Part shown: positions 5,821 to 57,779 of the stretch, piece after piece
Position numbering within the stretch: the stretch's first letter is position 1
How the letters are laid out: every line of letters starts with the position of its first letter
Source of the DNA: Gaiellaceae bacterium
Lineage (GTDB): Bacteria; Actinomycetota; Thermoleophilia; Gaiellales; Gaiellaceae
Reading direction: 5' to 3'
NCBI GenBank assembly: GCA_035546715.1
Contig: DASZWI010000131.1
Span: 35,465-99,464 of the forward strand
Length of the DNA stretch: 64,000 nucleotides
Translations under genes and position numbers: made by a program
Notes under the pieces: model-generated
What the model was told of the DNA's origin: nothing
Database searches by the model: none
The model's input: the letters and a program-made list of their open reading frames with translations, nothing else

Positions 5821-5847
5821 GGCAGGGCCGCGAAAGCGGCCCTTGCC
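5821..5847 (+). terminator. Stem-loop downstream of flagellin 1
   Basis: GGCAGGGCCGC-GAAA-GCGGCCCTTGCC (one bulge), 65 nt after the stop. The T-tail is weak (CTTGGG). Confidence 0.4.
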
Positions 5848-5850
5848 CTT

Positions 5851-6075
5851 GGGAGGGGCACCTACGGTTCCCCTCCCAAACCCTCCCCTCCGACACTGGC
5901 GGGCTCGGACGGCCGTCCGGACCCGGGCGCCACACGGGACGGCTTGCTGCGGCTCGCGCCCGAGCAGGCTCGGGCGCTCGCGTAGGCCGCTCGTCTCGTA
6001 CCTGGTACGTCGCTCGGCGCCGTCAGGAAGCGCGGATCGGTTCCGGGCGATGTACCAGGTACGCGGGGTCTCGGC
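5851..6075 (+). repeat. Intergenic repeat copy 1 (modules A + middle + C)
   Basis: Contains hairpin A (GGGAGGGG..CCCCTCCC) at 5851-5877 and a conserved middle with the CGGACGGCCGTCCG palindrome. GTACCTGGTAC (5998-6008) and GTACCAGGTAC (6052-6062) are also present. By eye it aligns at roughly 85% with 56558-56690. Confidence 0.8.
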
Positions 6076-6076
6076 C

Positions 6077-7255: not shown

Positions 7256-7269
7256 GGCCGAGAAAGCTA

Positions 7270-7438
7270 GCGGTGGTGCCGGGCCGTACCGGCAGGGTCA
7301 GACCCCGGTCTGACCCTGGGGTGCGCGAGCCGGAGCGGGACCATCTCGCGTGGGCGCCGTGTCGCGGCCCGGGGCGGACGAGCTGTCGGTGCCGGAGGGG
7401 TGGGGTCGGGAGGGAACCGGAGGGGGTTCCCTCCCCGA
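7270..7438 (-). repeat. Intergenic repeat copy 2 (diverged; A hairpin abuts the infA stop)
   Basis: TCGGGAGGGAACC..GGTTCCCTCCCCGA hairpin at 7406-7438. Also the GGTCAGACC-cc-GGTCTGACC palindrome at 7296-7315. The reverse complement aligns loosely with the other copies. Confidence 0.6.
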
Positions 7439-16450: not shown

Positions 16451-16451
16451 C

Positions 16452-16552
16452 GAAGGGGTCGGAACCCTCCGTACCTGGTACATCACATGCGACCGATTCG
16501 CCCTTCGGGACGGCGTCGAGCGACGTACCAGGTACGCGAGTCTCGCAGCGCC
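16452..16552. repeat. Intergenic repeat copy 3 (module C only)
   Basis: GTACCTGGTAC (16471-16481) and GTACCAGGTAC (16525-16535) flank a GCCCTTCGGGAC mini-hairpin, followed by GCGAGTCTCGC. Located between two convergent stops. Confidence 0.7.
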
Positions 16553-16554
16553 GG

Positions 16555-40221: not shown

Positions 40222-40418
40222 CGAGGGCCGAAACTCCCGTACCTGGTACATCGCCGATGCCCTCGCGAAGGGCGGAGCGGTCCGTGCGATGTACCAGGTA
40301 CGAGGGTCTCGCGAGCCGCAGCAAGCCGTCTCGTGTGGCGCCCCGGTCCGGACGGTCGTCCGAGCCCGACAGTGTCGGAGGGGAGGGCTCGGGAGGGGAA
40401 CTGGAGGTTCCTCTCTCG
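40222..40418 (-). repeat. Intergenic repeat copy 4 (C + shortened middle + A, reverse orientation)
   Basis: Perfect 16-nt arms CGTACCTGGTACATCG (40238-40253) and CGATGTACCAGGTACG (40287-40302). A hairpin GGGAGGGGAACTGGAGGTTCCTCTC at 40391-40416. Confidence 0.8.
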
Positions 40419-40423
40419 ACTGC

Positions 40424-40450
40424 TCAAGTTGGCCCCGTCGCTGCCGACAA
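40424..40450 (+). promoter_or_regulatory. Sigma-28-like promoter upstream of flgB
   Basis: TCAA-N15-GCCGACAA with an exact 15-nt spacer, 77 nt before the proposed flgB start. Confidence 0.35.
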
Positions 40451-40527
40451 AGAGCCTAGGCCTCAGGGACGGAGGTCGAGTTCAGCCCACGGACGGGCGC
40501 CAATCCGATTTCAGGAGCGACGCCGAC

Positions 40528-41309: not shown

Positions 41310-41626
41310 TGGCACTCCCGGTCGGCGCAGTCTCCAACCCGTTCAAGGTCGGCCCGCTCGTCGAGAACGGCGCGGCGGGCGGCAGCGCGTCGTCGGCGTC
41401 GCCGGGCGGCGCGTTCGGCAAGGCGCTCGCCAAGTCGATCGACGCGCTCGACCAGTCGCAGGCCGAGGCGGCGCAGCAGACGCAGGCGCTCGCGACCGGC
41501 CAGGCGACCGACCTGTCGGCCGTCGTCATGTCGGTCGAGAAGGCCAGCCTCGAGGTGCAGCTCGCCACGCAGGTGCGCACCAAGGCGACGGACGCGTTCC
41601 AGCAGATCATGCAGATGCAGGTCTGA
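41309..41626 (+). CDS. fliE: Hook-basal body protein FliE
   Basis: 105 aa. C-terminus DLSAVVMSVEKASLEVQLATQVRTKATDAFQQIMQMQV is typical of FliE. Confidence 0.9.
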   Translation: MALPVGAVSNPFKVGPLVENGAAGGSASSASPGGAFGKALAKSIDALDQSQAEAAQQTQALATGQATDLSAVVMSVEKASLEVQLATQVRTKATDAFQQIMQMQV

Positions 41627-41648
41627 CGAGGCCGGAGGGGACGGACGG

Positions 41649-44215: not shown

Positions 44216-44832
44216 GCTCGTTTGTGTTCGAAGAGCTCGAGGCCCATGGGGAGATCGTGGGCCTCGGGAACACGCCGGCCGAGCGTGCGGCGCGCATCGT
44301 GGCCGAGGCCGAGGCGCACGCCGCCGAGATCGAGACCGAGGCCCGCCGGGCCGGCTACGAGGCGGGCTACGCCGAGGGCCTGGCCCAGGCCGCACGCGAG
44401 CTCGAGATCCCTCGCGCGACCTTCGCGGCGGCGGTCGACGCCATCCAGGCCGCCCGTGACGACGTCTGCGCGGCGGTCGAGCAGCACGCCGTCGAGCTCG
44501 CGGTCGCGATCGCCGAGCGCGTGGTCGGCGCGGCGCTCGACGTCCGCCCGGAGCTCGTCTGCGACGTCGTCGCGAGCGCGTTGCGCCGCGTCGTCGAGCG
44601 CGACCGCCTGGCGATCGACGTGAACCCCGAGGACGTCCCGCTCGTCCGCGCCTGGCTCGAGTCGCAGTCCGAGATCGCCGTGGCGACCGTCGAGGTGCGC
44701 GGCGAGCGGCGCGTGCCGCGCGGCGGCTGCGTCGTCCGGACGTCGGAGGGCGAGGTCGACGCGCGCGTCGGCGAGCAGCTCGCGCGGGCCCGCGAGGTGC
44801 TGCGCGAGGCGTTCGCGGAGCGCACCGCATGA
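44212..44832 (+). CDS. fliH: Export ATPase regulator FliH
   Basis: 206 aa. Glu/Ala-rich coiled N-terminal part plus C-terminus GGCVVRTSEGEVDARVGEQL. ATGA overlaps on both sides. Confidence 0.8.
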   Translation: MSSFVFEELEAHGEIVGLGNTPAERAARIVAEAEAHAAEIETEARRAGYEAGYAEGLAQAARELEIPRATFAAAVDAIQAARDDVCAAVEQHAVELAVAIAERVVGAALDVRPELVCDVVASALRRVVERDRLAIDVNPEDVPLVRAWLESQSEIAVATVEVRGERRVPRGGCVVRTSEGEVDARVGEQLARAREVLREAFAERTA

Positions 44833-46154
44833 CGCGGGTCCTCGACAGGGCCGTCTTCGAGTCATACGCCGAGTCGATCCGGGTCGCCGACCTCCATCCG
44901 AGGCGCGGCCGGGTGCGCAGCCTGATCGGCCTCGTGATCGAGGCGACCGGCCTGCGGGCCGAGGTCGGCGAGCTCTGCACGATCTCCGCCGGCCGCAACG
45001 GCGACGAGGTCGCCGCCGAGGTCGTCGGCTTCCGCGACGGCGCGACACTCCTCATGCCGCTCGGCGAGATGCACGGCATCGGGCCGGGCAACCTCGTCTC
45101 GGCGACCGGGAAGCCGTTCCGGCTGCCGGTGGGGGAGGAGCTGCTGGGTCGCGTCCTCGACGGGCTCGGCCGCCCGATCGACGACCTGCCCGCGCCCGAC
45201 ACCGCGGAGTTCCGCTCCACGTTCGCCGCGCCGCCGTCGCCGCTCCAGCGCGCCCGCATCTCGCAGCGGCTGTCGCTCGGCGTCCGCGCGCTCGACGGCT
45301 TCGTCCCGTGCGGCACCGGCCAGCGGCTCGGCATCTTCGCCGGGTCGGGCGTCGGCAAGTCGTCGCTGCTCGGCATGATCGCCCGCTCGACGTCGGCCGA
45401 CATCAACGTGATCTGCCTCGTCGGCGAGCGGGGCCGCGAGGTGCGCGAGTTCGTCGAGCGCGACCTCGGCGACGCACTCGAGCGCTCCGTCGTGATCGTC
45501 GCCACCTCCGACGAGCCCGCGCTCGTGCGGATCAAGGCCGCCTTCGCGGCCACCACGATCGCCGAGTGGTTCCGCGACCGGGGCCAGGACGTCGTCCTGA
45601 TGATGGACTCGGTCACGCGCCTCGCGCTCGCCCAGCGCGAGCTCGGGCTCGCGATCGGCGAGCCGCCGGCCGCCCGCGGCTTCACCCCGAGCGTCTTCGC
45701 CCTGCTGCCGCGGCTCCTGGAGCGGGCCGGGACGTCCGACGTCGGCTCGATCACCGGCCTCTACACCGTCCTCGTCGAGGGCGACGACATGAACGACCCG
45801 ATCGCCGACGCCGTCCGCGGCATCCTCGACGGCCACTGCGTGCTGACGCGCGAGCTCGCGCATCGCAGCCACTACCCGGCGGTCGACGTGCTCCAGTCGG
45901 TCTCCCGCCTCCAGGGCGACGTGACCGAGCCGGACGTCCGCCAGGCGGCGGCGTCGCTCCGCGAGCTGCTGGCCCTGCATCGCGAGAAGGAGGACCTGAT
46001 CGCGATCGGCGCGTACGCCGCCGGCAGCGACCCGCGCATCGACCGGGCGATCGAGCTGCTGCCCTCGATCGAGGGCTTCCTGAAGCAGTCCGTCGACGAG
46101 CCGACCCCGTCGGAGGAGACGGATCGCCTGATCCTCGAGCTCGCCGAGTCCTAG
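44829..46154 (+). CDS. fliI: Flagellum-specific ATPase FliI
   Basis: 441 aa. Walker A GIFAGSGVGKSSLL and Walker B VVLMMDSVTR. Confidence 0.97.
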   Translation: MTRVLDRAVFESYAESIRVADLHPRRGRVRSLIGLVIEATGLRAEVGELCTISAGRNGDEVAAEVVGFRDGATLLMPLGEMHGIGPGNLVSATGKPFRLPVGEELLGRVLDGLGRPIDDLPAPDTAEFRSTFAAPPSPLQRARISQRLSLGVRALDGFVPCGTGQRLGIFAGSGVGKSSLLGMIARSTSADINVICLVGERGREVREFVERDLGDALERSVVIVATSDEPALVRIKAAFAATTIAEWFRDRGQDVVLMMDSVTRLALAQRELGLAIGEPPAARGFTPSVFALLPRLLERAGTSDVGSITGLYTVLVEGDDMNDPIADAVRGILDGHCVLTRELAHRSHYPAVDVLQSVSRLQGDVTEPDVRQAAASLRELLALHREKEDLIAIGAYAAGSDPRIDRAIELLPSIEGFLKQSVDEPTPSEETDRLILELAES

Positions 46155-46164
46155 CCAGGCGCCC

Positions 46165-46356
46165 GCCCCTGACCTTGTGTTGAGTCAACACAAGGTCGGT
46201 TCGGCCCGGCCCGACGCCGGACGAAGGGGCCGCCTTCGCGCGTGCCCGAGCGTGAGCCGCACGACGCGTGACGTCTCGAGCGGCAGTCCGAACGGCGGTC
46301 CGAGTTGACCGATGTCGGAGGGGGGTTGGGAGGGGAACCGGAGGTTCCTCTCCACG
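46165..46356 (-). repeat. Intergenic repeat copy 5 (B palindrome + middle + A)
   Basis: Perfect 27-bp palindrome GACCTTGTGTTGAGTCAACACAAGGTC (46171-46197). A hairpin GGGAGGGGAACCGGAGGTTCCTCTCC (46328-46353) abuts the stop of the next gene. Confidence 0.8.
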
Positions 46357-46358
46357 AG

Positions 46359-46826
46359 CTAGGCGGCTGCGCGCTCGGGGCGGGCGCCGAGGCCGATGGC
46401 GAGGCCGAGCTCGAAGAGCTGGAGCGTGCTCGGGGCCGGGGCCCGGCCCTCGGCGACGACGCGGCCGAGCTCGGTCTCGGCGTCCGCGATCGCGTTGAGG
46501 TCGCACTGGCGCGCGATCACCGCATGCCGGCCGAAGCTCCGCACGGTCGCGACGCCGTCGAGCAGGTGCCGCGGCACGGCGGGCTCGGCGGGTGGCAGCC
46601 ACGCGCTGACGAGCATGCCGCAGAGGCAGGCGGTCGCCCCCTCGGCGACGTCGCGCTCCCACGTCGGGGCGGCCCGGCCGACCGTCGTCCGGGCGAGCTC
46701 GAGCGCGATCTGCGTCGCGAGCCCGTCGGGAGCCTGGAGCTCGCGCGCGATCGGATCGTCCCCGAGCCCGGTCCCCAGCGCAGCGGTGAACGCGGCGCGG
46801 ATGTCGTCTTCGTCGTACTCCCGCAC
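46359..46826 (-). CDS. Hypothetical protein (about 155 aa; start uncertain)
   Basis: GC3-rich frame of ORF 46359..47372. The first canonical start outside the repeat is GTG 46826. No motif recognised. Confidence 0.45.
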   Translation of the reverse strand: MREYDEDDIRAAFTAALGTGLGDDPIARELQAPDGLATQIALELARTTVGRAAPTWERDVAEGATACLCGMLVSAWLPPAEPAVPRHLLDGVATVRSFGRHAVIARQCDLNAIADAETELGRVVAEGRAPAPSTLQLFELGLAIGLGARPERAAA

Positions 46827-46879
46827 GCCCTCAACGTAGTCGGCGCCGGCCGACGTGTCATTAGGCGAAAGCGCAGCGC

Positions 46880-47086
46880 AGGACCAGACCTTGTGTTGAC
46901 TCAACACAAAGTCGAGACCGGCCCGGCACCCACGCCCGCCGAAGGGCCCCCTACGCGAGCGCCCGGGCTTGCTCGGGCGTGAGCCGCAGCAGACCGTCTC
47001 GGGTGGCGTCCCGGTCCGTACGGCCGTCCGAGCTGCACGTGTCGGAGGGGAGGGTTCGGGAGGGGAACCGGAGGTTCCTCTCCCAA
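46880..47086 (-). repeat. Intergenic repeat copy 6 (B palindrome + middle + A)
   Basis: GACCTTGTGTTGACTCAACACAAAGTC (46887-46913). A hairpin at 47058-47084 abuts the J-domain gene stop. It is the reverse complement of 56558-56756. Confidence 0.8.
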
Positions 47087-47089
47087 CTG

Positions 47090-47353
47090 TCAGGCGTAGA
47101 GGTCGACGAGCTGCGGCCGGCTCGGTGCTCGGCCGTAGCCGTACGTGCCGGGCACGACAGTGCCCGGGACCGTGCGCGGGGCGCTCACGAGGAGCTCGCG
47201 GTACGCGCTCTGGATCGACTCGATCGACCGGCCGTTGCCGGCGCCGGTGTCGGGGTGGTGCGCCCGCAGGGCGCGCCGGTAGGCGCGGCGGACCTCCTCG
47301 TAGGAGGCGCCGCTGCCGACGCCGAGCATCGCGTGCGCACGTGAGACATCCAT
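47090..47353 (-). CDS. Small J-domain (DnaJ-like) protein
   Basis: 87 aa. AHAMLGVGSGASYEEVRRAYRRALRAHHPDTG contains the HPD motif. Confidence 0.75.
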   Translation of the reverse strand: MDVSRAHAMLGVGSGASYEEVRRAYRRALRAHHPDTGAGNGRSIESIQSAYRELLVSAPRTVPGTVVPGTYGYGRAPSRPQLVDLYA

Positions 47354-47421
47354 GTCCCGTCCACGGTATCACCCGAAAGGGTGGTGTCCAGTCCTACGGA
47401 GAGGTGAGATCCGGGGCGGAA

Positions 47422-48267
47422 TCAGGCGTTGACCGCGTCGAAGCGATCCTGCGCCGCGACGAGGTCGGCGACCCGCTCGGCGGCGGCGTCGAGGTCGACG
47501 CCCGGCAGCAGGACACGCCGTGGCAGCTCGCGGGCCGGCTCGATCCCGACGTCGAGGCGGCGGACGAGCACGTCGGCGATCTGCACGAGCGCGCCGAGCG
47601 GCGTCTGCGGCGCGGGCGCGTCGTGGTCGCGGATCGCGACGACGAGGTCGAGCGGGTACGACCAGCGCTCGGCCAGCAGCGCACCGAGCTCGGCGTGCGA
47701 GAACCCGAAGATCCAGTCCTCCGCCTCCCAGAACTGCTCTCCGCGCGACTCGGCCTCGAGCAGGTAGCGGAACTCGTCCGGCGCGTTCGCCGCGATCACG
47801 TTCAGCCCCAGGTTGTGCAGCAGACCGGCCGCGAGCGCGCGCTCGTGGTCGATCCCGGCCGGCGCCAGGGCGCGGGCGGCGAGTCCGACGCGGATGGCGT
47901 GGCGGTGCAGCTCGTGGCGCGCCCATTCGAGCCCGTCGGGCGGCCCCTGGAGCATCCGCAGGCCGGGTGAGGCCAGCGCGAGCGCCGCGACGCGCTCGTA
48001 GCCGAGCCGCGTGATGGCGGTGGGCAGGTCGGCGACGCGCGTCGCGCTGTACGACGCCGCGCTGTTCGCGACGCGCAGCAGGAGCGCCGAGAAGGCCTCG
48101 TCGTGGCTCGCCTCGAGGGCCAGCAGCTGCGGCGTCGACGAGGTGAGCTCGCAGAGCTCCGCGACGCGGAGGAGCGAGGCGGGGTCGCCCACCGGCAGCG
48201 CGAGGGCGCGCTCGACCAGCTCCTCGATGAAGTGGGAGTCGCGGGCGACCGGCTCGGGAGAGGCCAT
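47422..48267 (-). CDS. HDOD-domain signalling protein
   Basis: 281 aa. SALLLRVANSAASYSATRVADLPTAITRLGYERV..HAIRVG..LLHNLG fits the HDOD pattern. Confidence 0.8.
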   Translation of the reverse strand: MASPEPVARDSHFIEELVERALALPVGDPASLLRVAELCELTSSTPQLLALEASHDEAFSALLLRVANSAASYSATRVADLPTAITRLGYERVAALALASPGLRMLQGPPDGLEWARHELHRHAIRVGLAARALAPAGIDHERALAAGLLHNLGLNVIAANAPDEFRYLLEAESRGEQFWEAEDWIFGFSHAELGALLAERWSYPLDLVVAIRDHDAPAPQTPLGALVQIADVLVRRLDVGIEPARELPRRVLLPGVDLDAAAERVADLVAAQDRFDAVNA

Positions 48268-48372
48268 CGGAGACGTGATCGGCCGGGCGGACCGAGGTCT
48301 GAGCGAAACACGCCCGGAACGCCCCTGGAACGGGGGATTCCGCCAGGTCGCGGCCGGGTCCCGTGCCGAGGC

Positions 48373-48399
48373 TCACATACGGGCCCGGACGGCCGATTA
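48373..48399 (+). promoter_or_regulatory. Sigma-28-like promoter upstream of cheW
   Basis: TCAC-N15-GCCGATTA with an exact 15-nt spacer, 35 nt before ATG 48435. The -35 element is weak. Confidence 0.3.
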
Positions 48400-48434
48400 A
48401 CCGAACCGCTCGTCATTCCAAGGAGGAGTTCCAG

Positions 48435-48884
48435 ATGGCCGTTTCAGATGGTGCGCAGCAGCTCGTGGTGTTCTCGCTCGGCGACGAGGAGTACGCGCTG
48501 CCGATCACGCAGGTGCAGGAGATCATCCGGTACACGGAGCCTCGCGCGGTTGCGTCCGAGGAGTCGTGGATCGAGGGCGTCATCAGCCTGCGCGGGAAGA
48601 TCATCCCGGTGTGCAACCTCGCGGGCCGGCTCGGTCTCGGGACCGAGCGGGTCGACCACGCGAAGATCGTCATCGTCGAGACGGCCGGCGGTACCGCGGG
48701 CGTCACGGTCGACGAGGTCGAGGAAGTGCTCACGCTCGACGAGGAGCAGCTCGACGCGGTTCCCGGTGCGGGCACCGAGTGCATCGAGGCGGTCGCCAAG
48801 ATCGACGACCGGCTCGTCGTCCTGCTCAACTCCGACGGCATCTTCGCCGGCGCCAGCCTCGGCGCGGCGGCAGCGGCGGCGTAG
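48435..48884 (+). CDS. cheW: Chemotaxis coupling protein CheW
   Basis: Internal ATG 48435 preceded by AAGGAGG. QLVVFSLGDEEYALPITQVQEIIRY..ISLRGKIIPV. Confidence 0.93.
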   Translation: MAVSDGAQQLVVFSLGDEEYALPITQVQEIIRYTEPRAVASEESWIEGVISLRGKIIPVCNLAGRLGLGTERVDHAKIVIVETAGGTAGVTVDEVEEVLTLDEEQLDAVPGAGTECIEAVAKIDDRLVVLLNSDGIFAGASLGAAAAAA

Positions 48885-49906
48885 TGGGTCGGACCCCTGC
48901 ACGCGTCGTCGTCGTCGACGACTCCGCCCTCATGCGCCGTCTCCTCGCCTCGGCTCTGACCGAGGCGGGGTTCGACGTCGTCGCCGTCGCAGCCGACGGC
49001 GACGAGGCCTTGGCGGCCTGCGCGCAGCACCGCCCGGACGTGCTCAGCCTCGACCTGGCGATGCCCGGCCTCCACGGCCTGGACGTGCTGCGGGCGTTGA
49101 ACAAGACCGGGTCGACGGCCCGGGTGGTCGTCGTGTCGGCGTTCTCGCCGGCGTACGGCGCGCGTGCAGTGGACGCCCTCGCCGAGGGCGCCTTCGAGCT
49201 GGTCGAGAAGCCGAGCGCGGGCACCCCGCCCACGGCCTTCCTCGCCGAGCTCTGCGACAAGGTCGAGCTCGCTGCCCGCTCGAGCCCGACGAACCGGACC
49301 GCCGCGACGCCTGCGCGTGCGGTGAAGCGGGCCGTCGGCCGGCTGGGCAAGCGGGCCGTCCTGATCGCCTGCTCCACGGGCGGCCCGAAGGCGCTGGCCG
49401 ACCTGATCCCGAGGCTGCCCGCCCCGCTCGGGCACGGCGGCGTGATCGTGCAGCACATGCCGCCCGGGTTCACGCACTCCCTCGCCGACCGGCTCGACCG
49501 CAAGTCGCGGCTGACGGTGAAGGAGGCCTCGGGCGGCGAGCGGCTCGATCCGTCGACGCTGTACCTGGCGCCGGGCGGCAGCCACCTGCGGCTCGTGCAC
49601 GACGCCTGCCAGCTGAGCGACGACCCCGCAATCGGCGGTCTGCGCCCGCGCGCCGACCTCACGATCGAGGACGCCGCCAAGGCCTACGGACAGGACCTCG
49701 TCCTCGTCGTCCTCACCGGCATGGGCCGGGACGGCCTGGAGGGCGCCAAGGTCGTGAAGCGCTACGGCGGCCGGATCCTGGCCGAGGCCGAGGAGACCTG
49801 CACCGTCTACGGCATGCCGCGCGCGGTCGTCGAGGCCCGCCTGGCCGACGACGTCCTGCCGCTCGGCGACCTGCCGGCGGCGATCGCGGCGGAGGCGGGC
49901 GCATGA
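48884..49906 (+). CDS. cheB: Chemotaxis methylesterase CheB
   Basis: GTG 48884 overlaps the cheW stop by 1 nt. REC domain (VVVVDDSALMRR..DLAMP) plus esterase (IACSTGGPKAL..GMGRDG). Confidence 0.93.
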   Translation: MGRTPARVVVVDDSALMRRLLASALTEAGFDVVAVAADGDEALAACAQHRPDVLSLDLAMPGLHGLDVLRALNKTGSTARVVVVSAFSPAYGARAVDALAEGAFELVEKPSAGTPPTAFLAELCDKVELAARSSPTNRTAATPARAVKRAVGRLGKRAVLIACSTGGPKALADLIPRLPAPLGHGGVIVQHMPPGFTHSLADRLDRKSRLTVKEASGGERLDPSTLYLAPGGSHLRLVHDACQLSDDPAIGGLRPRADLTIEDAAKAYGQDLVLVVLTGMGRDGLEGAKVVKRYGGRILAEAEETCTVYGMPRAVVEARLADDVLPLGDLPAAIAAEAGA

Positions 49907-50715
49907 GCGTCCTCCTCGCCACCCGCCCGCACCCCGGGCGCGACGACGACTACGTCACCTTCTGCGAGGGCGTGCGCCGCATCTGCGGCATCGACCTCCT
50001 CCAGTACAAGCGCGGCCAGATGGAGCGCCGCATCCGGACGTTCGCCTCGAACCGCGGCGTCACGGACCTCGGCGCGTACCTGAGGCGCCTGCACGGCGAC
50101 CGCGCCGAGCTCGAGGCCTTCCTCGACCGCGTGACGATCAACGTCTCGCAGCTCTGGCGGAACCCGCAGGAGTGGGTCTCGCTCGCCCGCGACGTGCTGC
50201 CCGAGCTCGCGAAGGCGGGCCGGATCCGCGCCTGGAGCGCCGGGTCGTCGTACGGCGCCGAGGCCTACACGCTCGCGGCGCTCATGCTCGACACGGTTCG
50301 AGGCTCGGCCGGCGAGATCCTCGGCACCGACATCGACCCGCGGATGGTCGCCCGCGCCCGCGAGGGCCGGTTCTCGGCCGAGGACGCGCGCAGCGCGCCG
50401 CCCGAGGCCCTCACGCGGTGGTTCGAGCAGGACGGCGGCGAGTTCGTGGCCCGGCGCGAGCTGAAGGCGCTCGTGCGCTTCGAGACCGGCGATCTGCTCC
50501 GCATGCCGTTCCCCGAGGGCCGCTACGACCTCGTGCTCTGCCGCAACACCGTCATCTACTTCACCGAGGACGTCCGCGACGCCCTCCACGAGCGTCTCGC
50601 GCGCTCGATCCGCCCCGGGGGCTACCTCCTGATCGGCTCGACGGAGCGTGTGTCGAACACCGCCGCCGTCGGCCTCGAGGTCGTCCGCCCGTTCCTCTAT
50701 CGCAAGGTCGCCTAA
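49903..50715 (+). CDS. cheR: Chemotaxis methyltransferase CheR
   Basis: ATGA overlap with cheB. 270 aa. IRAWSAGSSYGAEAYTLA..VLCRNTVIYF. Confidence 0.93.
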   Translation: MSVLLATRPHPGRDDDYVTFCEGVRRICGIDLLQYKRGQMERRIRTFASNRGVTDLGAYLRRLHGDRAELEAFLDRVTINVSQLWRNPQEWVSLARDVLPELAKAGRIRAWSAGSSYGAEAYTLAALMLDTVRGSAGEILGTDIDPRMVARAREGRFSAEDARSAPPEALTRWFEQDGGEFVARRELKALVRFETGDLLRMPFPEGRYDLVLCRNTVIYFTEDVRDALHERLARSIRPGGYLLIGSTERVSNTAAVGLEVVRPFLYRKVA

Positions 50716-50723
50716 GGAGCCGC

Positions 50724-52691
50724 ATGGACATCTCCGAGTACCTGCCGATGTTCCTCGCGGAGGCGCGCGAGCACCTCCAGGGGCTGAACCTGGCGGTCGT
50801 GCGCGTCGAGGAGGACCCCGCCGACCGCGAGACGGTCGACGAGATCTTCCGCGCCGCGCACTCGCTGAAGGGCATGTCGGCGACGATGGGCTTCGCCGGC
50901 GTCGCCGCGCTGACGCACGAGATGGAGAACGTCTTCGAGCTGCTGCGGCAGCGCAAGGGCGGGCTCGAACGCGAGGCGATCGACGTGCTGCTCGAGTGCC
51001 TCGACGCGCTCGAGGCGGCGGTCGACGCGATCGACGCCGAGGGCTCCGAGAACCTCGACCCGGCGGCCCTGATCGCGAAGCTGCAGCGGCTGATCCGCGA
51101 CCGGGACGCCGAGGAGGACGAGGCGCCGGCCGAGACCGCCGCGGGCTCCGCCGCTCCGGACATCGAGGTCGACGGCCCGGTCGTCGTCGTCAGGGCGACG
51201 CTCGCGGAGGACGCGATGATGCCGGCCGTCCGCGCCTTCCAGGTGCTGGCCGCGCTCGGCGAGCACGGGCGCGTGCTGCGCTCCACGCCCGCCGAGGACG
51301 CGCTCGACGACTTCTCCGGGTCCGTGGTCGAGGCGTGGCTCGAGACCGAGCTCGAGGCGGAGGCGATCATCGCCGCCGTCTCAGCCGTCCCCGACGTCGC
51401 CTCGGCGACCGCCGAGGACGCCTCGGTCGCGGCCGAGGCCGAGGCCGACGCGGCCGAGCCCGAGCAGGCGGGCGACGGCCAGGAGCGCGCCGGCACGCAC
51501 GCGAAGAAGTCCGCGTCCAGCACGGTTCGCGTCGACGCCGACCGCCTGGACGTCCTGATGCACCTGATGGGCGAGCTCGTCGTCCACCGCACCCAGGTCG
51601 AGTCGCTCGTCTCGCAGGCGAACGTGCCCGGCCTGGCGCAGGCGGTGCAGGACCTGACCCGCAGCTCCCAGGCGCTCCAGGCGATGGTCATGCAGGTGCG
51701 GATGATCCCGGTCGACGCCGTGTTCCTCCGCTTCCCGCGGCTCGTCCGCGACCTGTCGTCGAAGCTCGACAAGAAGGTCGAGCTCGTCCTGACGGGCCGC
51801 GACACGGAGCTCGATCGCACCGTGGTCGACGCGCTCGGCGATCCGCTCGTCCACCTCGTCCGCAACTCGCTCGACCACGGCATCGAGCCTCCCGAGGTCC
51901 GCGCCGCCGCCGGCAAGCCGGAGACGGCGACGCTCGAGATCGCGGCCCGCCACGCCGGCGGCAACGTCGAGATCAGCGTCTCGGACGACGGGCGGGGCAT
52001 CGACCCGGCCGCCGTTGCCCGCAAGGCGCTCGACCGCGGTCTGATCGGCCCCGAGCAGCTCGAGGGCTTCGACATGCGCGCCGCGATCGAGACGCTGTTC
52101 GCACCGGGCTTCTCCACCGCCGAGGTGACGAGCGACATCTCCGGTCGCGGCGTCGGCATGGACGCCGTCCGGACGACGATCCGCGAGCTCGGCGGCGAGG
52201 TCGTCCTCAACTCGACCCCCGGCCAGGGCACCGTCGCCCTGATCCGGCTGCCGCTCACCCTGGCGATCATGTCGACGCTGCTCGTCGACGCGGCCGGCCG
52301 GCCGTTCGCGATCCCGCTCGACCGCGTCGAGCGCACCCTGCGCATCGCCGACCACGTCGTCCGCTCCGTCGCCGGTCGCGCGATGCTCGTCGAGCGCGAC
52401 AACGTCTTCCCGCTCCTCGACGCCGCGGCCGCCCTCGGCCACCAGGCGGCGACCCCGCCGACGCACGCCGTCCTGGTGCGGTCGGGCGACGCGCGGATCG
52501 CGCTCGCCGTGGAGCAGCTCGTCGGGCAGCGCGAGCTCGTCACGCGCCCGCTGCCGCCGGAGGTCGCCGACTCGGCGGCCGTCTCGGGCGGCGCCGTCCT
52601 CTCCGACGGGTCGATCGCCCTGATCGTCGACTGCGACGCCCTCTCCCAGCCCCCCGTCAGCCGTCACGAGACCATGGCCCGCGCCGCGTAA
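50724..52691 (+). CDS. cheA: Chemotaxis histidine kinase CheA
   Basis: ATG 50724 after AAGGAG. 655 aa. HPt motif FRAAHSLKGMSATMG, N-box HLVRNSLDHGIE, G-boxes DDGRGID / GRGVGMD, and a CheW-like C-terminal domain. Confidence 0.96.
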   Translation: MDISEYLPMFLAEAREHLQGLNLAVVRVEEDPADRETVDEIFRAAHSLKGMSATMGFAGVAALTHEMENVFELLRQRKGGLEREAIDVLLECLDALEAAVDAIDAEGSENLDPAALIAKLQRLIRDRDAEEDEAPAETAAGSAAPDIEVDGPVVVVRATLAEDAMMPAVRAFQVLAALGEHGRVLRSTPAEDALDDFSGSVVEAWLETELEAEAIIAAVSAVPDVASATAEDASVAAEAEADAAEPEQAGDGQERAGTHAKKSASSTVRVDADRLDVLMHLMGELVVHRTQVESLVSQANVPGLAQAVQDLTRSSQALQAMVMQVRMIPVDAVFLRFPRLVRDLSSKLDKKVELVLTGRDTELDRTVVDALGDPLVHLVRNSLDHGIEPPEVRAAAGKPETATLEIAARHAGGNVEISVSDDGRGIDPAAVARKALDRGLIGPEQLEGFDMRAAIETLFAPGFSTAEVTSDISGRGVGMDAVRTTIRELGGEVVLNSTPGQGTVALIRLPLTLAIMSTLLVDAAGRPFAIPLDRVERTLRIADHVVRSVAGRAMLVERDNVFPLLDAAAALGHQAATPPTHAVLVRSGDARIALAVEQLVGQRELVTRPLPPEVADSAAVSGGAVLSDGSIALIVDCDALSQPPVSRHETMARAA

Positions 52692-52736
52692 GGCGCTCGC
52701 CGATCGAGCCGACCACTCATTCGAAAGGACCAGAAG

Positions 52737-53327
52737 GTGAAGATCTACTCCGAACTCGAGCTCGACGCCCTCCGGGAGCTCGCCAACATCGGCTCGGGCA
52801 CCGCCGCGACCGCCCTGTCGCAGATGCTCGCCCGCACCATCGACGTGTCGGTCCCGACGGCGCTCGCCCTGCCGCTCAACGAGGCGGTCGAGACGGTCGG
52901 CGACGCGGAGCTCGTGGTCACGGGCGTCGTCCTGCCGGTGTTCGGAGATCTCGACGGCCTGACCGTCCTCCTGTTCGAAGAGCACGACGCGAACCGCGTC
53001 TGCGAGCTCCTCGGGGTCGAGCCCGAGTCCGAGTTCGCCGTCTCCGCGCTCGCCGAGATCGGCAACATCCTCTGCTCCTCGTACCTCGGGGCGATCGTCT
53101 CGATGACCGGCCTGCGGATCGAGCCCGGCCCGCCGCAGACCGCGTGCGACATGCTCGGCGCGATCGTCGAGTCGGTGCTCGCGATCGGCGCCCAGTCCAA
53201 CGACGTCGCCCTGCTGCTCGACTCCGACATCCGGATCGAAGGCGAGGAGTCGTCCTTCACGTTCATGCTCGTTCCCAGTACGGCCGGCGTCGCCGAACTG
53301 CTCGCCCGGCTGGGACTCGGCGCGTGA
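52737..53327 (+). CDS. cheC: CheY-P phosphatase CheC
   Basis: 196 aa. Two D/S-x3-E-x2-N sites (DALRELAN, SALAEIGN). Confidence 0.85.
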   Translation: MKIYSELELDALRELANIGSGTAATALSQMLARTIDVSVPTALALPLNEAVETVGDAELVVTGVVLPVFGDLDGLTVLLFEEHDANRVCELLGVEPESEFAVSALAEIGNILCSSYLGAIVSMTGLRIEPGPPQTACDMLGAIVESVLAIGAQSNDVALLLDSDIRIEGEESSFTFMLVPSTAGVAELLARLGLGA

Positions 53328-53827
53328 CGGTGGCCACGGAGACCATGGTGAGGATGGGCGAGCTTGCGGCATCTCGCTCGGCGGGCGACACGCTCGTCGC
53401 GATCGGCCTCGGGTCGTGCATCGGCCTGGCGCTGGTCGACCGCGCGCGGTGCGTCGCGGGGCTCGCCCACGTGATGCTGCCCGAGTCGTCCGGCGCCCCC
53501 GACGCCTCGGCCCGCTGCAAGTTCGCGGACATCGCCGTGCCGGCGCTGATCGACAAGGTCGTCGGGCTCGGCGCGGCGCCGAGCAAGCTCGAGGCCGTGC
53601 TCGTCGGCGGCGCCCGCATGTTCGCGTTCGGCGGCTCGTCCCTCGACATCGGCGCCCGCAACGAGGAGGCCACGCTGGCCCAGCTCGCCGACCGTCGCAT
53701 CAAGGTCGTCGCCAGCGCCACCGCCGGCACCAAGGGCCGTACCGTCCGCGTCCACGTCGACGGCTGCCGTGTGGTCTCGAAGGAGGCCGGCGGCGTCGAG
53801 GAGCTCCTCTTCGGAGAGGCCGCGTGA
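53324..53827 (+). CDS. cheD: Chemoreceptor deamidase CheD
   Basis: GTG 53324 (GTGA overlap). 167 aa. LVAIGLGSCIGLAL..GLAHVMLP. Confidence 0.9.
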   Translation: MTVATETMVRMGELAASRSAGDTLVAIGLGSCIGLALVDRARCVAGLAHVMLPESSGAPDASARCKFADIAVPALIDKVVGLGAAPSKLEAVLVGGARMFAFGGSSLDIGARNEEATLAQLADRRIKVVASATAGTKGRTVRVHVDGCRVVSKEAGGVEELLFGEAA

Positions 53828-54801
53828 GCGAGGTCCTGTCCAACGACCAGATCGCGGCGCTCGTCGAGGCGGCGCGCGGCGGTCAGATCCCCGAGTCGAA
53901 GGCGCAGACCTCGGCCCGGCGGCCGAAGCGCGTCCGCGAGGTGGACTTCACGCGTCCGACGAAGTTCACCCAGGACCAGCAGCGGCGGATCAGCCGCGGT
54001 CACGAGGGCTTCTGCCGGGCTGCGACGACGCAGCTCTCGGCGGAGTTCCGCACCACGGTGCAGCTCGAGGTGATCAACGTGGACCAGCAGACCTGGTCGG
54101 CGGCCCTGAACGAGATCCCGCAGCCTTCGCTGTTCGGCATCGTCTCGACGGCGACGGGCGGCCCGCTCCTGCTCAGCATCGAGCAGCCCGTCGTCGCGAC
54201 GATGATCGAGTGGCTGCTCGGCGGCGAGCAGGACGGCAAGGCGTTCGACCGCGACCTCACCGAGATCGAGCTGACGATCGCGACGCGCATCTTCTCGACG
54301 GTCGTCAGCCAGCTCTCCCGGGTGTGGCAGGAGCTCCTGTCCACCGACCTGGCGCTCGGCCGCGTCGAGACGCAGGCGTCGAACGTCCAGCTCGCGCCGA
54401 CGAGCGAGCCCACGCTCGCGATCACGATCGAGATGCAGGTCAACAAGCAGTCGGCGACGATGTCGCTGCTCCTGCCGCACCGCTCGGTCGAGGCGTACCT
54501 GACCGAGCTCTCCACCGGCCACTTCGGCGACCCGACCGACCACGGCGCCGACGCCGAGGTCGAGCAGATGGTGCGCGCCGCCCTCCGCGGCATCGACGTC
54601 GAGGTGCGCGCCGAGGTCGGCTCGACCGAGCTCACCGTCGACGAGGTGCTCGCGCTCCAGGTCGGCGATCTCGTCAAGCTCGGGCCCGCGGCGTCCGGCA
54701 GCACGCTCTACGCCGACTCCGTGCCCATCCATCGTGCGCGCCCCGGCCGCAGCGGCACCCGCCGCGCGGTCGAGGTCCTCGAGAGGATCGATCCCGAATG
54801 A
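53824..54801 (+). CDS. fliM: Switch protein FliM
   Basis: GTG 53824 (GTGA overlap). 325 aa. N-terminus SEVLSNDQIAALV (the LSQxEIDALL-like CheY-P binding peptide). Confidence 0.93.
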   Translation: MSEVLSNDQIAALVEAARGGQIPESKAQTSARRPKRVREVDFTRPTKFTQDQQRRISRGHEGFCRAATTQLSAEFRTTVQLEVINVDQQTWSAALNEIPQPSLFGIVSTATGGPLLLSIEQPVVATMIEWLLGGEQDGKAFDRDLTEIELTIATRIFSTVVSQLSRVWQELLSTDLALGRVETQASNVQLAPTSEPTLAITIEMQVNKQSATMSLLLPHRSVEAYLTELSTGHFGDPTDHGADAEVEQMVRAALRGIDVEVRAEVGSTELTVDEVLALQVGDLVKLGPAASGSTLYADSVPIHRARPGRSGTRRAVEVLERIDPE

Positions 54802-55697
54802 GCGCCGCCCTCAGGCAGCTGGGCGAGTCGACGGCCGAGGCCGTCGCCGGCGTGCTCGGCGCGCTGGCGCCCGGCGAGGTCGAGCGCGGCGCGGTCACCG
54901 TCGCCGGCGCGGACACGGATCCGCTCGCGGGCATCCGCGCGCCGGTCGTCGTCGCGAGCGTCTCGTACGTCGACGGCGTCACCGGCGGCAACCTGTTCGT
55001 CATCGGCATCGCCGGGGCCAAGCGGCTCGCCGCCTCGATGATGGGCCTGTCCGAGCCCGAGGACATCGAGGGCGAGCTCAGCGAGCTCGAGCTCTCGGCC
55101 GTGTCCGAGGCTGCGAACCAGATGATGGCGGTCGCCGCCGGCGCCACGAGCAAGGTCCTCGGCGAGGAGGTCGAGATCGGGGTCCCGCAGACGCAGCTGC
55201 TGGCGTCGGTCGAGGAGGTCGAGGCGCTCTACGAGAAGACGCCGCACCAGGCGCACGTCGCCTTCACGATCTTCGGCGAGTCGTGCCGGCTCGTCCAGCT
55301 CGTCCCGAACGCGTTCGTCGTCCGCATGGGCCGCGCGTTCGACCAGCAGGCCGGGGCGCTGCTCGTCGACCACGACGTGCCCGGCCCGGCCGTCGACGGC
55401 GGCGGCGGCGATGTCCTGCGGGGCGTCTCGCTGCGCGTCTGGGCCGAGCTCGGCCGGGCGACCCTGCCCGTCGGGCGGGCGGTCGGCCTCGCGTCGGGCT
55501 CGATCGTCGAGCTCGACCGCGCCGTCGACGATCCCGTCGATCTCTTCGTCAACGGACGGCGCTTCGCGTCGGGCCGCCTCATGCTCGCCGACGACGGCGA
55601 GTGGGCGGTCCAGATCGACGAGATCGCCGACCCCGCTGACGCTTCTGCTCCTGCTTCAGCTTCAGCTGGTCCACCCATCCAGGAAGGAGTTCGCTAG
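54798..55697 (+). CDS. fliY: Switch protein FliY (CheC-like domain + FliN C-terminal domain)
   Basis: ATGA overlap. 299 aa. SAVSEAAN site and C-terminal SpoA/FliN domain LRVWAELGRATLPVGRAVGLASGSIVELD. Confidence 0.9.
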   Translation: MSAALRQLGESTAEAVAGVLGALAPGEVERGAVTVAGADTDPLAGIRAPVVVASVSYVDGVTGGNLFVIGIAGAKRLAASMMGLSEPEDIEGELSELELSAVSEAANQMMAVAAGATSKVLGEEVEIGVPQTQLLASVEEVEALYEKTPHQAHVAFTIFGESCRLVQLVPNAFVVRMGRAFDQQAGALLVDHDVPGPAVDGGGGDVLRGVSLRVWAELGRATLPVGRAVGLASGSIVELDRAVDDPVDLFVNGRRFASGRLMLADDGEWAVQIDEIADPADASAPASASAGPPIQEGVR

Positions 55698-56057
55698 ATG
55701 GCCCGCGTTCTCGTCGTCGACGACGCCGCGTTCATGCGCAAGATGGTCAGCGACGCACTCGCCGGAGGCGGCCACGAGGTCGTCGGCGAGGCGTCGAACG
55801 GTGTGGAGGCGTACGACCGCTTCCAGGAGCTTCGTCCCGATGTGACGACGCTCGACATCACCATGCCGGAGAAGGACGGCCTGGCGGCCCTGAAGGACAT
55901 CCTGTCCTTCGACCCGACCGCCAAGGTCGTGATGTGCTCGGCACTCGGCCAGGAGGCCAAGGTGCTCGAGGCGATCAAGGGCGGGGCGAAGGACTTCGTG
56001 GTGAAGCCCTTCCAGGCCGACCGCGTCCTCGACGCGGTCTCGAAGGCGCTCGCCTAG
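55698..56057 (+). CDS. cheY: Response regulator CheY
   Basis: 119 aa. VLVVDDAAFMRK..DVTTLDITMPEKDG..KPF. Confidence 0.95.
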   Translation: MARVLVVDDAAFMRKMVSDALAGGGHEVVGEASNGVEAYDRFQELRPDVTTLDITMPEKDGLAALKDILSFDPTAKVVMCSALGQEAKVLEAIKGGAKDFVVKPFQADRVLDAVSKALA

Positions 56058-56131
56058 ATCGTTCGCCCGAGACGGGGCGCCGCATCGCACCGCAACGCGG
56101 GCGGAGCGGCGCCCCAACGGCTCACGAGCTC

Positions 56132-56149
56132 GACGGGACGGCTCCCGTC
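56132..56149 (+). terminator. Stem-loop after cheY
   Basis: GACGGGA-cggc-TCCCGTC followed by TCT. Preceded by a longer GGGGCGCCGC..GCGGCGCCCC hairpin (56074-56115). The T-tail is weak. Confidence 0.3.
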
Positions 56150-56190
56150 TCTAAGGTGGAGATGCCCTCCGCCGAAGAGAAGGAGCCTCG

Positions 56191-56553
56191 ATGACCCGCC
56201 GCCTCGTCCCGCTGCTCGCCGCCGCCTGCGCGGCCTCCGCCCTCGCCGTCGCCGCCTCCGCGGAGGCGCCGCCGATCGGCCCGCTCCCCGAGCCGGCCGT
56301 GACCCACGTGACGACGACCAGGGGCTCGCTCGTCTCGATCGCGCTCCCGCGCCGGGCCGGCTACGACTGGCGCATCGCCGGTGCGCTGAAGGCGTCGGTC
56401 GTGCAGGAGCAGACCGAGGGCGACGTCGGCCCCGACGTCGTGCTCGTCTTCCGCACGGTCGGCAAGGGCACCGCGACGATCACCGTCGCCCAGACGAGAG
56501 GCGAGCGCCCGAAGGCCTACCGCGCGGTGCGGTACGTGATCGTCGTTCGATAG
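56191..56553 (+). CDS. Secreted small beta-rich protein, possibly chagasin/I42-like protease inhibitor
   Basis: Signal peptide (LVPLLAAACAASALAVAASAEA). The GYDW and FRTVGKGTATITV..RGERP motifs are loosely I42-like. Confidence 0.45.
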   Translation: MTRRLVPLLAAACAASALAVAASAEAPPIGPLPEPAVTHVTTTRGSLVSIALPRRAGYDWRIAGALKASVVQEQTEGDVGPDVVLVFRTVGKGTATITVAQTRGERPKAYRAVRYVIVVR

Positions 56554-56925
56554 TCGAGAGAGGGGCACCTTCGGTTCCCCTCCCAAACCCTCCCCTTCGA
56601 CACGTGCAGCTCGGACGGCCGTACGGACCGGGACGCCACACGAGACGGTCTGCTGCGGCTCACGCCCGAGCAAGCCCGGGCGCTCGCGCAGGGGAGTCCC
56701 TTCGGTGGGCGTGGGTGCCGGGCCGGTCTTGACTTTGTGTTGACTCAACACAAGGTGGCTCGGGTTCGGCCCTCGCGGGCGCGTCGGGGGTCTGCGCGAG
56801 GCGGTTTGGTGTGGCTCGGGGTGGTCTCGGAATGGGCTCGCGCCGGCTCTTGGCGGCTCGCTCGACCCTCGTACCTGGTACAGCGCTCGCCGGGGGCCTG
56901 CCGGACGCCGGGGTCTCGCGGAGCG
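56554..56925 (+). repeat. Intergenic repeat copy 7 (most complete: A + middle + B + extension + half C)
   Basis: A hairpin at 56558-56584, B palindrome GACTTTGTGTTGACTCAACACAAGGT at 56731-56756, GTACCTGGTAC at 56871-56881, then GGGGTCTCGCGGAGC. Confidence 0.8.
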
Positions 56926-56940
56926 CTACCGTCCCCGGCC

Positions 56941-57333
56941 GTGTCTTGGGAAGCCGTTTCGCTCGCGTTCCTCGGCTCGCATCTGGCGGGGGACTTCCTG
57001 TTCCAGACGGACTGGCAGGCGCGCCGCAAGCACGCCGGGCTCGGACGCGACTCCGTCGCGCGGCGCGCGCTCGGGACGCACGTGCTGACCTATCTCGTCG
57101 CGTTCGTCCCGGCGCTCGTCTGGCTGGCGTCCGGCCTCGGCGCGTGGAAGGCGGTCGGCGTCGCGGCGCTCGTCGCCGTGCCGCACCTCGCGGTCGACGA
57201 CCGGCGCGTCGTCGAGCTCTGGGTGCGCCGCGTCAAGCGGGCGCCCGAGCTCGCGCCCGAGGTGCAGATCGCGGTCGACCAGTCCTTCCACGTGCTCTGC
57301 CTGATCGCCGTGGCCCTGCTGGTCTCGCTCTGA
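56941..57333 (+). CDS. DUF3307-like membrane protein
   Basis: GTG 56941. 130 aa. SHLAGDFLFQTDWQARRKH matches the H..DF.LQ....K motif. Hydrophobic segments present. Confidence 0.6.
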   Translation: MSWEAVSLAFLGSHLAGDFLFQTDWQARRKHAGLGRDSVARRALGTHVLTYLVAFVPALVWLASGLGAWKAVGVAALVAVPHLAVDDRRVVELWVRRVKRAPELAPEVQIAVDQSFHVLCLIAVALLVSL

Positions 57334-57365
57334 CGGCGCGCTCTCTGGCATATGATCGGCACTCC

Positions 57366-57779
57366 ATGAGCGCACCCGTCGACTTCCTCCGGCACGTGCC
57401 CCTGTTCCGGGGCCTCACCGACAAGCAGCTCGAGATGCTCGCGCGCAGCTTCACGGAGCGGACGTTCGCGGCCGGCCGCGAGCTGACCACCGAGGGCGCC
57501 GGCGGCGTCGGGTTCTTCGTCATCGAGAGCGGCGAGGCCGTGGTGACCGTCGACGGCGAGGAGCGCCGGACGCTCGGCGCCGGCGACTACTTCGGCGAGC
57601 TCGCCCTGCTCGACGGCGGCTCTCGCACCGCGACCATCACCGCGACCTCCGACGGCCGCGCCTGGGGGCTCGCCGCCTGGGAGTTCCGGCCGCTCGTCGA
57701 GCAGAACGGCGCGCTCGCGTGGCCGCTGCTCGAGCAGCTCGCGAGCCGCATCCGCGAGCTCGAGAGCCGGCTCCGCTAG
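57366..57779 (+). CDS. Cyclic-nucleotide-binding domain protein (no HTH)
   Basis: 137 aa. FLRHVPLFRGLTDKQLEMLA..GDYFGELALLDGGSRTATITA. Confidence 0.85.
   Translation: MSAPVDFLRHVPLFRGLTDKQLEMLARSFTERTFAAGRELTTEGAGGVGFFVIESGEAVVTVDGEERRTLGAGDYFGELALLDGGSRTATITATSDGRAWGLAAWEFRPLVEQNGALAWPLLEQLASRIRELESRLR

Follow-up and report, generated by a model that had tools for sequence, protein, structure and literature searches.

Mosaic palindrome-built repeats behind stop codons in a flagellar region of a Gaiellaceae genome

Hairpin-rich segments that recur behind the genes of one genome may be regulatory sites fixed in place or copies of a repeat that has spread. A stretch of 64,000 nucleotides from a Gaiellaceae bacterium (assembly GCA_035546715.1, contig DASZWI010000131.1, positions 35,465 to 99,464; the whole stretch is called the window below) raises this question, since seven of its intergenic segments share a small set of palindromic modules. 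The actinobacteria of the Thermoleophilia and Gaiellales abound in soil and have hardly been studied genetically. As judged from the comparison of sequences between relatives, the segments are a repeat family that has spread, as opposed to a set of fixed regulatory sites. The reading that we favour, with some reserve, is that they form a non-autonomous, mosaic, palindrome-built repeat family of the Gaiellaceae/Thermoleophilia, of the same kind as repetitive extragenic palindromes (REPs) and bacterial interspersed mosaic elements (BIMEs), BOX elements and miniature inverted-repeat transposable elements (MITEs).

All seven segments listed in the initial annotation, and its modules A, middle, B and C, were recovered at their places by pattern matching, with none expected by chance as judged against shuffled sequences. 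Hairpin A with ≤3 mismatches occurs in the window at 5851, 40391, 46328 and 47058 (0 expected in shuffles), palindrome B at 46171, 46887 and 56731, and the palindrome of module C, GTACCWGGTAC, seven times, as three pairs and one single (0 expected in shuffles). A covariance model of hairpin A and its tail (R1, built from 44 A modules) retrieved exactly six window copies, at 5847, 7384, 40367, 46307, 47034 and 56554, and nothing else above noise. The seven elements are designated c1 to c7 (Table 1). The middle of ~90 nt is 88% identical between c1 and c7, and identity between paralogues ranges from 69% to 94%, with c6 and c7 agreeing at 93.9% over 197 nt, indicating recent copying.

Relatives supply empty sites for individual copies. 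In L059 and L061, contigs encoding an identical CheY protein, only 30 nt at the c7 site separate the TAG of a 120-aa gene from the GTG with which a DUF3307 gene starts; the window has 364 extra nt directly after the TAG, and the flanks align on both sides. By this comparison c7 ends at ~56917 and not, as first proposed, at 56925. Similarly, c4 is missing in L063 and L064, the site reading TAG-ACG-CTCAAGT in L063 and TAG-(~195-nt element)-ACTG-CTCAAGT in the window. A larger block, A(c2)-MFS gene-A'(c1), is missing in L010 (81-87% identical to the window), where the infA stop lies 3 nt from the flagellin terminator. The block looks like a repeat-bounded gene insertion. Model R1 detected no A copy in L009, L010, L011, L059, L060, L063, L064 and L065, which together cover ~100 kb of synteny in six sister genomes, against six in the window. 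As to the arrangement of this region, the MFS gene (6077-7255) stands between two inverted A modules (block 5847-7438) in the window, and infA and flagellin are directly convergent in L010.

The copies also differ in their composition from one relative to the next. L013 (85-89% identical) has B where c1 of the window has C, and L033 carries A + middle + C at the c7 site in place of A + middle + B + distal part. In a strain 99.6% identical to the window, a further palindrome, module D, is tandemly duplicated. Whole units are arranged head-to-tail in tandem arrays in L003 (three units), L029/L037, L040 and L014; a 28-nt flank repeat in L029, considered as a target-site duplication, proved to be the next unit of such an array. 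Moreover, the 155-aa gene of the window (46378-46846, minus strand) is inverted relative to L063 and L064, with its fliI and J-domain/HDOD neighbours collinear, and both junctions of the inversion coincide with copies, c5 and c6. In a separate contig, L058 (JGI 3300049823, 3335 nt), A and the middle of c7 are joined at 888-1100 to the middle and B of c6, followed by the 155-aa gene and fliI. This join is either an inversion of window 47086-56554 between the inverted copies or an assembly chimera formed via the 94%-identical repeat.

Outside the window we found about 30 further copies, falling into two subfamilies, in metagenomes and in metagenome-assembled genomes (MAGs) of Gaiellaceae and Thermoleophilia, many of them at contig ends, as is usual for repeats. 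Among species-representative genomes, the only genuine matches came from one MAG each of Gaiellaceae and Thermoleophilia and from a single contig of 3.9 kb that had been assigned to Amnibacterium. The last of these (L003, JAICSU010000228.1, labelled Amnibacterium sp. MAG) carries three tandem A + middle + B units followed by an HNH endonuclease gene, and has probably been mis-binned into a Microbacteriaceae MAG. Collections of plasmids, phages and viral contigs gave no match to the element, and Rfam gave nothing at the gathering score in the window and only chance-level hits in E-value scans of L003 and of 46100-47150. No intergenic repeat family was found in the literature on Thermoleophilia or Gaiella, in agreement with the first impression that none has been described for this lineage.

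Table 1. Positions and make-up of the seven copies and of the G-quadruplex motifs in the window.
Feature	Positions	Strand	Content	Borders and neighbours
c1	5847..6076	+	A + middle + C	A end adjoins flagellin terminator hairpin (5820-5848); C end adjoins MFS stop codon (6077-6079, minus strand)
c1 hairpin A	5849-5879			
c1 C-rich tail	5880-5896			
c1 middle	5897-5989			
c1 module C	5990-6076		palindromes GTACCTGGTAC at 5998 and GTACCAGGTAC at 6052	
c2	7256..7438	-	diverged A + remnant of middle + palindrome D	far end is the start of the MFS gene
c2 hairpin A	~7406-7438			1 nt past infA stop (TAG, 7439-7441)
c2 tail	~7384-7405			
c2 palindrome D	7293-7318		CAGGGTCAGACC-CC-GGTCTGACCCTG; fifth palindrome type	
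c3	16451..16554	.	module C alone; palindromes at 16471 and 16525	from stop of small FlhB-family (Bac_export_2) gene (TAG 16448-16450) to convergent TPR-glycosyltransferase stop (16555-16557); gap wholly filled
c4	40222..40421	-	reversed: C + shortened middle + A	0-3 nt past fliT stop (TAG, 40219-40221), C end at that stop; A end towards flgB
c4 C palindromes	40239, 40291			
c4 tail	40370-40388			
c4 hairpin A	40389-40419			
c5	46155..46358	-	older A + diverged middle + B	
c5 hairpin A	~46328-46354			4-5 nt past 155-aa gene stop (TAG, 46359-46361)
c5 module B	46171-46197			16 nt from fliI stop
c6	46862..47089	-	A + middle + B	upstream of 155-aa gene
c6 hairpin A	47056-47086			5 nt past J-domain gene stop (TGA, 47090-47092)
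c6 tail	47039-47055			
c6 module B	46887-46913			
c7	56554..56917	+	A + middle + B + 160-nt distal part	directly after TAG at 56551-56553
c7 hairpin A	56558-56584			
c7 tail	56585-56603			
c7 module B	56731-56757			
c7 distal part			one GTACCTGGTAC at 56871; C-type end motif CGGGGTCTCG	
Module A G-quadruplex motifs	5870-5888, 7397-7414, 40380-40398, 47047-47065, 56577-56595	always opposite upstream gene		

Read in the direction of the upstream gene, a unit consists of the stop codon, a spacer of 1-12 nt, hairpin A, its tail, a middle chain of hairpins and a terminal palindrome. Module A is a GC-rich hairpin, (T)CGGGAGGGGMACC-loop-GGTTCCCCTCCCG(A), with a variable loop of 3-4 nt, followed by the tail CCCTCCCCTCCGACAC. 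Also written (G/A)AACCCTCCCCTCCGACAC, the tail is conserved and C-rich with CCUCC repeats, and could pair with the left arm of A over 7 bp as an alternative structure. The middle contains, in order, a small helix (UCCGA...UCGGA), the palindrome CGGACGGCCGTCCG, a 7-10-bp hairpin (CCCGAGC-AA-GCTCGGG) and a further variable hairpin. The end of the unit is interchangeable, being a B, C or D palindrome or another A module in inverted orientation. Apart from a centre of 1-2 nt, B, C and D are perfectly palindromic; B is preceded by GTGCCGGGSCGAAC, and C is composed of two mutually complementary 11-mers ~54 nt apart, with the end ...GGGGTCTCGG. In subfamily II, which comes from metagenomes, the middle is replaced by GGCGGGCGCGGGC-AAA-GCCCGTGCCCGC, and the element often closes with an inverted A', resulting in an A...A' element of ~270 nt between convergent genes. 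Such inverted pairs are present in L006, L028 and L030, and inverted A ends occur only in this subfamily.

Several observations concern the terminal modules individually. In its core, TTGTGTTGASTCAACACAA, palindrome B has an AT content that is unusually high for the host genome. Module D had escaped the initial annotation, which correctly described the A module of c2 as diverged and overlooked the D palindrome in the same copy; for c4 its reversed C-to-A order holds, with the C end meeting the fliT stop codon and the A end facing flgB. D represents a separate small palindrome family with the core GGGTCWGACCC, also found in L012 (9729-9859), L063 (11415-11438) and L065 (5519-5597), and it occurs in sister genomes without A, B and C, with three copies at the fliT-flgB spacer of L065, so that different palindrome families colonise the same intergenic spots in different species. 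The site in L010 orthologous to c3 (1174-1263) has TGAACCTGGTTCA and GCACCTGGTTCAGC/GCTGAACCAGGTGC instead of GTACCWGGTAC; the ACCWGGT core is unchanged and the arms are altered symmetrically, with the same symmetry as the c3 palindromes.

The most regular feature of the family is its position relative to genes. All copies are intergenic. Among the 44 unique A copies, at least 26 begin no more than 15 nt past a stop codon that was validated as closing a long open reading frame with high third-position GC. TAG is present at 14 of these 26 compared with a background of 30% (p=0.009), with a spacing of 2-7 nt, and the others follow TGA or TAA with spacers of 1-12 nt and a varying reading frame. 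Both documented empty sites (c7 and c4) already hold TAG, and the C end adjoins TAG in c1, c3 and c4. In the window, the observation that five of the six A copies follow a stop codon was borne out, the distance being 2-5 nt for c2, c5, c6 and c7; in c1, located beyond the flagellin's own hairpin, it is 94 nt. Unrelated hairpins in the clade also begin 1-3 nt after stop codons; together with the tiny spacers, this weakens stop adjacency as proof of a translation-linked role. In our reading, the copies dock behind stop codons because no other neutral nucleotides are on offer, possibly with TAG preferred in addition.

The same pattern could arise if module A were a vertically inherited, selected cis-regulatory RNA of 3' untranslated regions (a terminator, a Rho-loading or anti-Shine-Dalgarno site, or a device coupled to translation termination) that is repeated because many genes need one. 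The start of A 1-12 nt after stop codons and the conserved C-rich tail with its CCUCC repeats agree with this, as does its retention downstream of two genes. After infA, five lineages with identical IF-1 retain an A-type hairpin despite sequence drift, with compensatory change, and two lineages have other hairpins. After an rpoD-like gene, a hairpin identical at 26-27 of 27 positions is kept in three lineages in which third-codon positions are 74-85% identical and the DNA past the tail is unalignable, although this excess over synonymous sites is subject to ascertainment, since an exact right-arm and tail sequence was the pattern by which these copies were found. E. coli REP hairpins <16 nt from a stop codon are also stated to influence translation (PMC12306157, citing its reference 17). 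Nevertheless, close relatives with the same genes are without the element, c4 is oriented the other way, orthologous sites carry exchanged modules, units form tandem arrays, paralogues of up to 94% identity point to recent copying, and Rfam has no match. We therefore regard a selected cis-acting RNA as an unlikely explanation, though the best placed of those set against our own.

Regardless of how the copies arrived, their hairpins have been maintained, and on the favoured reading the retention behind infA and the rpoD-like gene would likewise be a sign of selection acting once a copy is in place. In the A stem, 85.9% of cells are paired, and 0 of 500 shuffles reached as high a value. The stem has 14 bp rather than the 12 bp first described, and the pair at its foot covaries (TC/GA, TT/AA or AT/AT). 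Every helix has a compensatory change somewhere, including the middle hairpin, B and A': the middle helix varies from CCCGAGC/GCTCGGG to CCCGAAC/GTTCGGG or GCCGGGC/GCCCGGC, B of L041 reads CTTGTGCTCAGTGAGCACAAG, and in A' a G-C pair is replaced by A-T. In terms of arms, changes on the left outnumber those on the right by 6 to 1 in the window and by 11 to 7 in a wider unbiased set; the unequal conservation is not robust.

What such hairpins may do is suggested by the signals around them. In the 17 kb scanned (40000-57100), a consensus scan found no sigma-70-like promoter, and only two weak U-tract terminator-like sites were detected, not above shuffles and none at any element; canonical promoter and terminator signals are essentially absent from this interval. 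As U-tract terminators do not exceed shuffles there, hairpins without a U-tract are the only visible candidates for transcript ends, and those of the family probably act as terminators of this type or as protectors of 3' ends. The predicted folding energy of hairpin A is -13 to -27 kcal/mol. At the RNA level, all six window copies give the stronger hairpin on the G-rich strand, the one opposite the upstream gene, because arm substitutions yield G.U pairs there and A.C mismatches on the sense strand. Over the collected A modules, non-Watson-Crick pairs on the sense strand comprise 15 A.C and 4 G.U, favouring the G-rich strand, a count biased by the search pattern; the middle helix P2, with 23 G.U against 1 A.C, favours the sense strand. 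Whole-element folds are alike on both strands (z-scores -2.55 and -1.98), and the functional strand is ambiguous.

The tail and the adjacent arm of module A additionally form GGGGAGGG-TTY-GGGAGGGG, a canonical G-quadruplex motif (four tracts, G3+ N1-7), with GGGGAGGGTTCGGGAGGGG as the candidate quadruplex sequence. It is found on the G-rich strand of c1, c2, c4, c6 and c7, which account for 5 of the 7 such motifs on both strands of the window. Hairpin stability and quadruplex motif would fit a bidirectional barrier between neighbouring transcription units. An extended version of this idea would make module A a self-propagating 'mobile terminator', placed 3' of stop codons, preferably TAG, by a hairpin- or single-stranded-DNA-specific enzyme, and stopping transcription through the hairpin and a template-strand G-quadruplex, or through an RNA quadruplex for convergent polymerases. 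It would explain the stronger G-rich-strand hairpin in all six copies and the apparently better conservation, in the window copies, of the G-rich/C-rich 19-mer and the arm that overlaps it. We consider a module with both properties unlikely, ranking it just behind the cis-acting RNA.

Another possibility is that the palindromes serve as double-stranded DNA sites for dimeric proteins, such as a nucleoid protein, gyrase or IHF as in BIMEs, or, for B, a CRP/FNR- or Rex-like regulator, in chromosome organisation or a regulon. B, C and D resemble operators in being perfect palindromes up to a 1-2-nt centre, the arms of B in L041 and of the C-like sites in L010 have changed symmetrically, and the outer half-sites of B, TGTG...CACA, presumably resemble CRP/FNR- or Rex-type operators. 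Hairpin pairing explains the symmetric changes equally well, however, and A has a real, variable loop of 3-4 nt, as folded hairpins do. In addition, B is always found in the same repeat context, downstream of genes and not in promoters, the promoter scan found nothing, and we know of no protein that binds these palindromes. A function as protein-binding sites is accordingly improbable in our view. B was also considered as a promoter in its own right and rejected, since TTGACT/TTGAGT is present and a correctly spaced -10 box is not.

The position of the MFS gene between two inverted A modules, the absence of this whole block in L010 and the location of the hairpins right after stop codons, as for attC sites, could also be taken to mean that A modules are attC-like recombination sites bounding gene cassettes. 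The arm reads GTTCCCC, however, without the GTTRRRY/RYYYAAC core, the copies are scattered in core flagellar operons in both orientations, most of them bound no cassette, and no integrase is present among the annotated neighbours of the copies; this explanation was rejected as very improbable. DNA uptake sequences arranged as inverted pairs, which form terminator-like hairpins in Neisseria and Haemophilus, and stop-codon recoding signals, for which hairpins directly after stop codons are typical (SECIS- and PYLIS-like signals), deserve next to no credence and were likewise rejected, as the 12-mer arm (0-1 mismatch) is confined to A hairpins, with no single occurrence within a gene, all three stop codons are used with spacers of 1-12 nt in varying frames, and the last residue of IF-1 does not depend on the presence of the element.

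We then come back to the favoured reading, a non-autonomous mosaic repeat family, and to the known systems with which it has to be compared. REPs are GC-rich imperfect palindromes with a conserved GT(A/G)G head directly 5' (PMC2817692). Roles ascribed to REP/BIME sequences are the stabilisation of mRNA 3' ends, the termination of transcription and, for those <16 nt from a stop codon, an influence on translation (PMC2817692; PMC12306157). The present family resembles them in its short GC-rich imperfect extragenic palindromes, often just after stops or between convergent genes, in mosaics and tandem clusters with other motifs, in palindromy kept by compensatory mutation, and in lacking terminal inverted repeats and target duplications. 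Unlike REP/BIME, it has no constant GT(A/G)G head (GTAG/GTGG is present in only a few copies, and TAG, found 1-5 nt upstream in no more than about half of all copies, is there the stop codon of the gene), its arrays are direct tandems and not of alternating orientation, its unit is longer (200-360 nt) with a fixed polarity, A first, and its host belongs to a deep actinobacterial lineage. The copy criterion for REP/BIME is >~100 per genome, compared with six A copies (seven elements) in the 64 kb analysed here.

Other families share other traits. BOX elements of Streptococcus pneumoniae (boxA-boxB(n)-boxC) are intergenic, structured and non-coding, built of ~50-nt modules and presumed to be mobilised in trans. 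The mix-and-match of modules in variable number and choice is similar here, whereas the sequence is unrelated, every module is a palindrome and the insertion point is tied to stop codons. As with MITEs (Correia/NEMIS, ERIC, RUP), the elements are small, non-autonomous and strain-variable and can supply terminators or processing sites and promote rearrangements, and subfamily II (A...inverted A', ~270 nt) is like them in form; unlike MITEs, two empty/filled pairs show no target-site duplication, the A + middle + B and A + middle + C elements of the window have no terminal inverted repeats, and we know of no parent insertion sequence. TRIT of Mycobacterium tuberculosis, which Arnvig and colleagues are said to have described in 2011, is reportedly a single, conserved and repeated terminator-like hairpin with a U-rich tail between convergent genes. 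As here, many gene ends of a high-GC actinobacterium with few canonical terminators share one hairpin sequence, but the present family is mosaic, without a U-tract, with the G-quadruplex/C-rich motif and with clear insertion polymorphism. It also resembles intrinsic terminators in closing transcription units with a GC-rich hairpin, but has no U-tract after the stem. Thus the family behaves like REP/BIME, BOX and MITE sequences but falls outside their strict definitions. The initial suggestion of a REP/MITE-like element accordingly stands as regards behaviour (insertions with clean empty sites, module swaps, arrays, rearrangements and further copies) and falls as strict membership, since target-site duplications and a constant GT(A/G)G head are both missing, as are terminal inverted repeats from the single-A elements.

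Put together as a mechanism, copies would insert immediately 3' of stop codons, where a few nucleotides are neutral, with TAG preferred and without target duplication, and would then diversify through module swaps, internal deletions and tandem duplication while also acting as substrates for rearrangements. The hairpins so placed at the 3' ends of transcription units would most likely serve as hairpin-only terminators or as insulators of one gene from the next, and as barriers to 3' exonucleases, and selection for such a role would explain the upkeep of hairpins in old copies through compensatory changes. Given the lack of target duplication, a cut-and-paste DDE transposase is a poorer fit than recombination or an enzyme that works in trans and depends on hairpins or single-stranded DNA.

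Several points weigh against this picture. Target-site duplications, a possibility raised at the outset, were seen at neither of the c7 and c4 empty/filled pairs, and terminal inverted repeats are lacking in single-A elements, the ends of c1, c3, c4 and c7 having ≤6 nt in common, so that the spread could be due to recombination rather than transposition. A cognate TnpA-REP (REP-associated tyrosine transposase, RAYT), whose gene in REP/BIME systems lies between two inverted REPs of the same genome, had likewise been envisaged; tblastn with E. coli RayT over only the 453 kb of window and loci gave no match. That no transposase lies nearby, as first noted, is true of every window gene annotated directly or readable from syntenic annotated loci, none of which has a transposase domain. 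The window may be unusually dense in copies. As the metagenome copies were gathered by exact matching of right arm and tail, these parts look more conserved than they are. Much of the stop adjacency could follow from very short spacers, that of the empty c7 site being 30 nt. Finally, with respect to the role at 3' ends, there is no U-tract, the stem being followed by (G/A)AACCCUCCCC, and A.C mismatches weaken the sense-strand hairpin in 4 of the 6 window copies.

The window, with a G+C content of 70-76%, carries flagellar and chemotaxis genes together with an island for flagellin glycosylation, and its FliI is 90% identical to a protein named as from a Gaiellaceae MAG. The island is large (17000-37000), lies between two flagellar gene blocks and encodes two NeuB homologues, a DegT-type aminotransferase/GNAT, WbqC, methyltransferases and several large glycosyltransferases. 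Two flagellin genes and fliW-csrA are also present in the window, and a cNMP-binding protein is encoded at ~57360-57779.

As far as the literature found goes, this is the first intergenic repeat family for the Thermoleophilia/Gaiellales. It is usable as a strain-typing marker, and it explains contig breaks, and possible false joins, in metagenome assemblies. The family visibly drives local rearrangement, in the form of gene inversion, gene insertion and module exchange, and it offers a tractable case of how high-GC bacteria without U-tract terminators end their transcripts. If the precise docking behind stop codons reflects the specificity of an enzyme, this would point towards a new mobilisation system.

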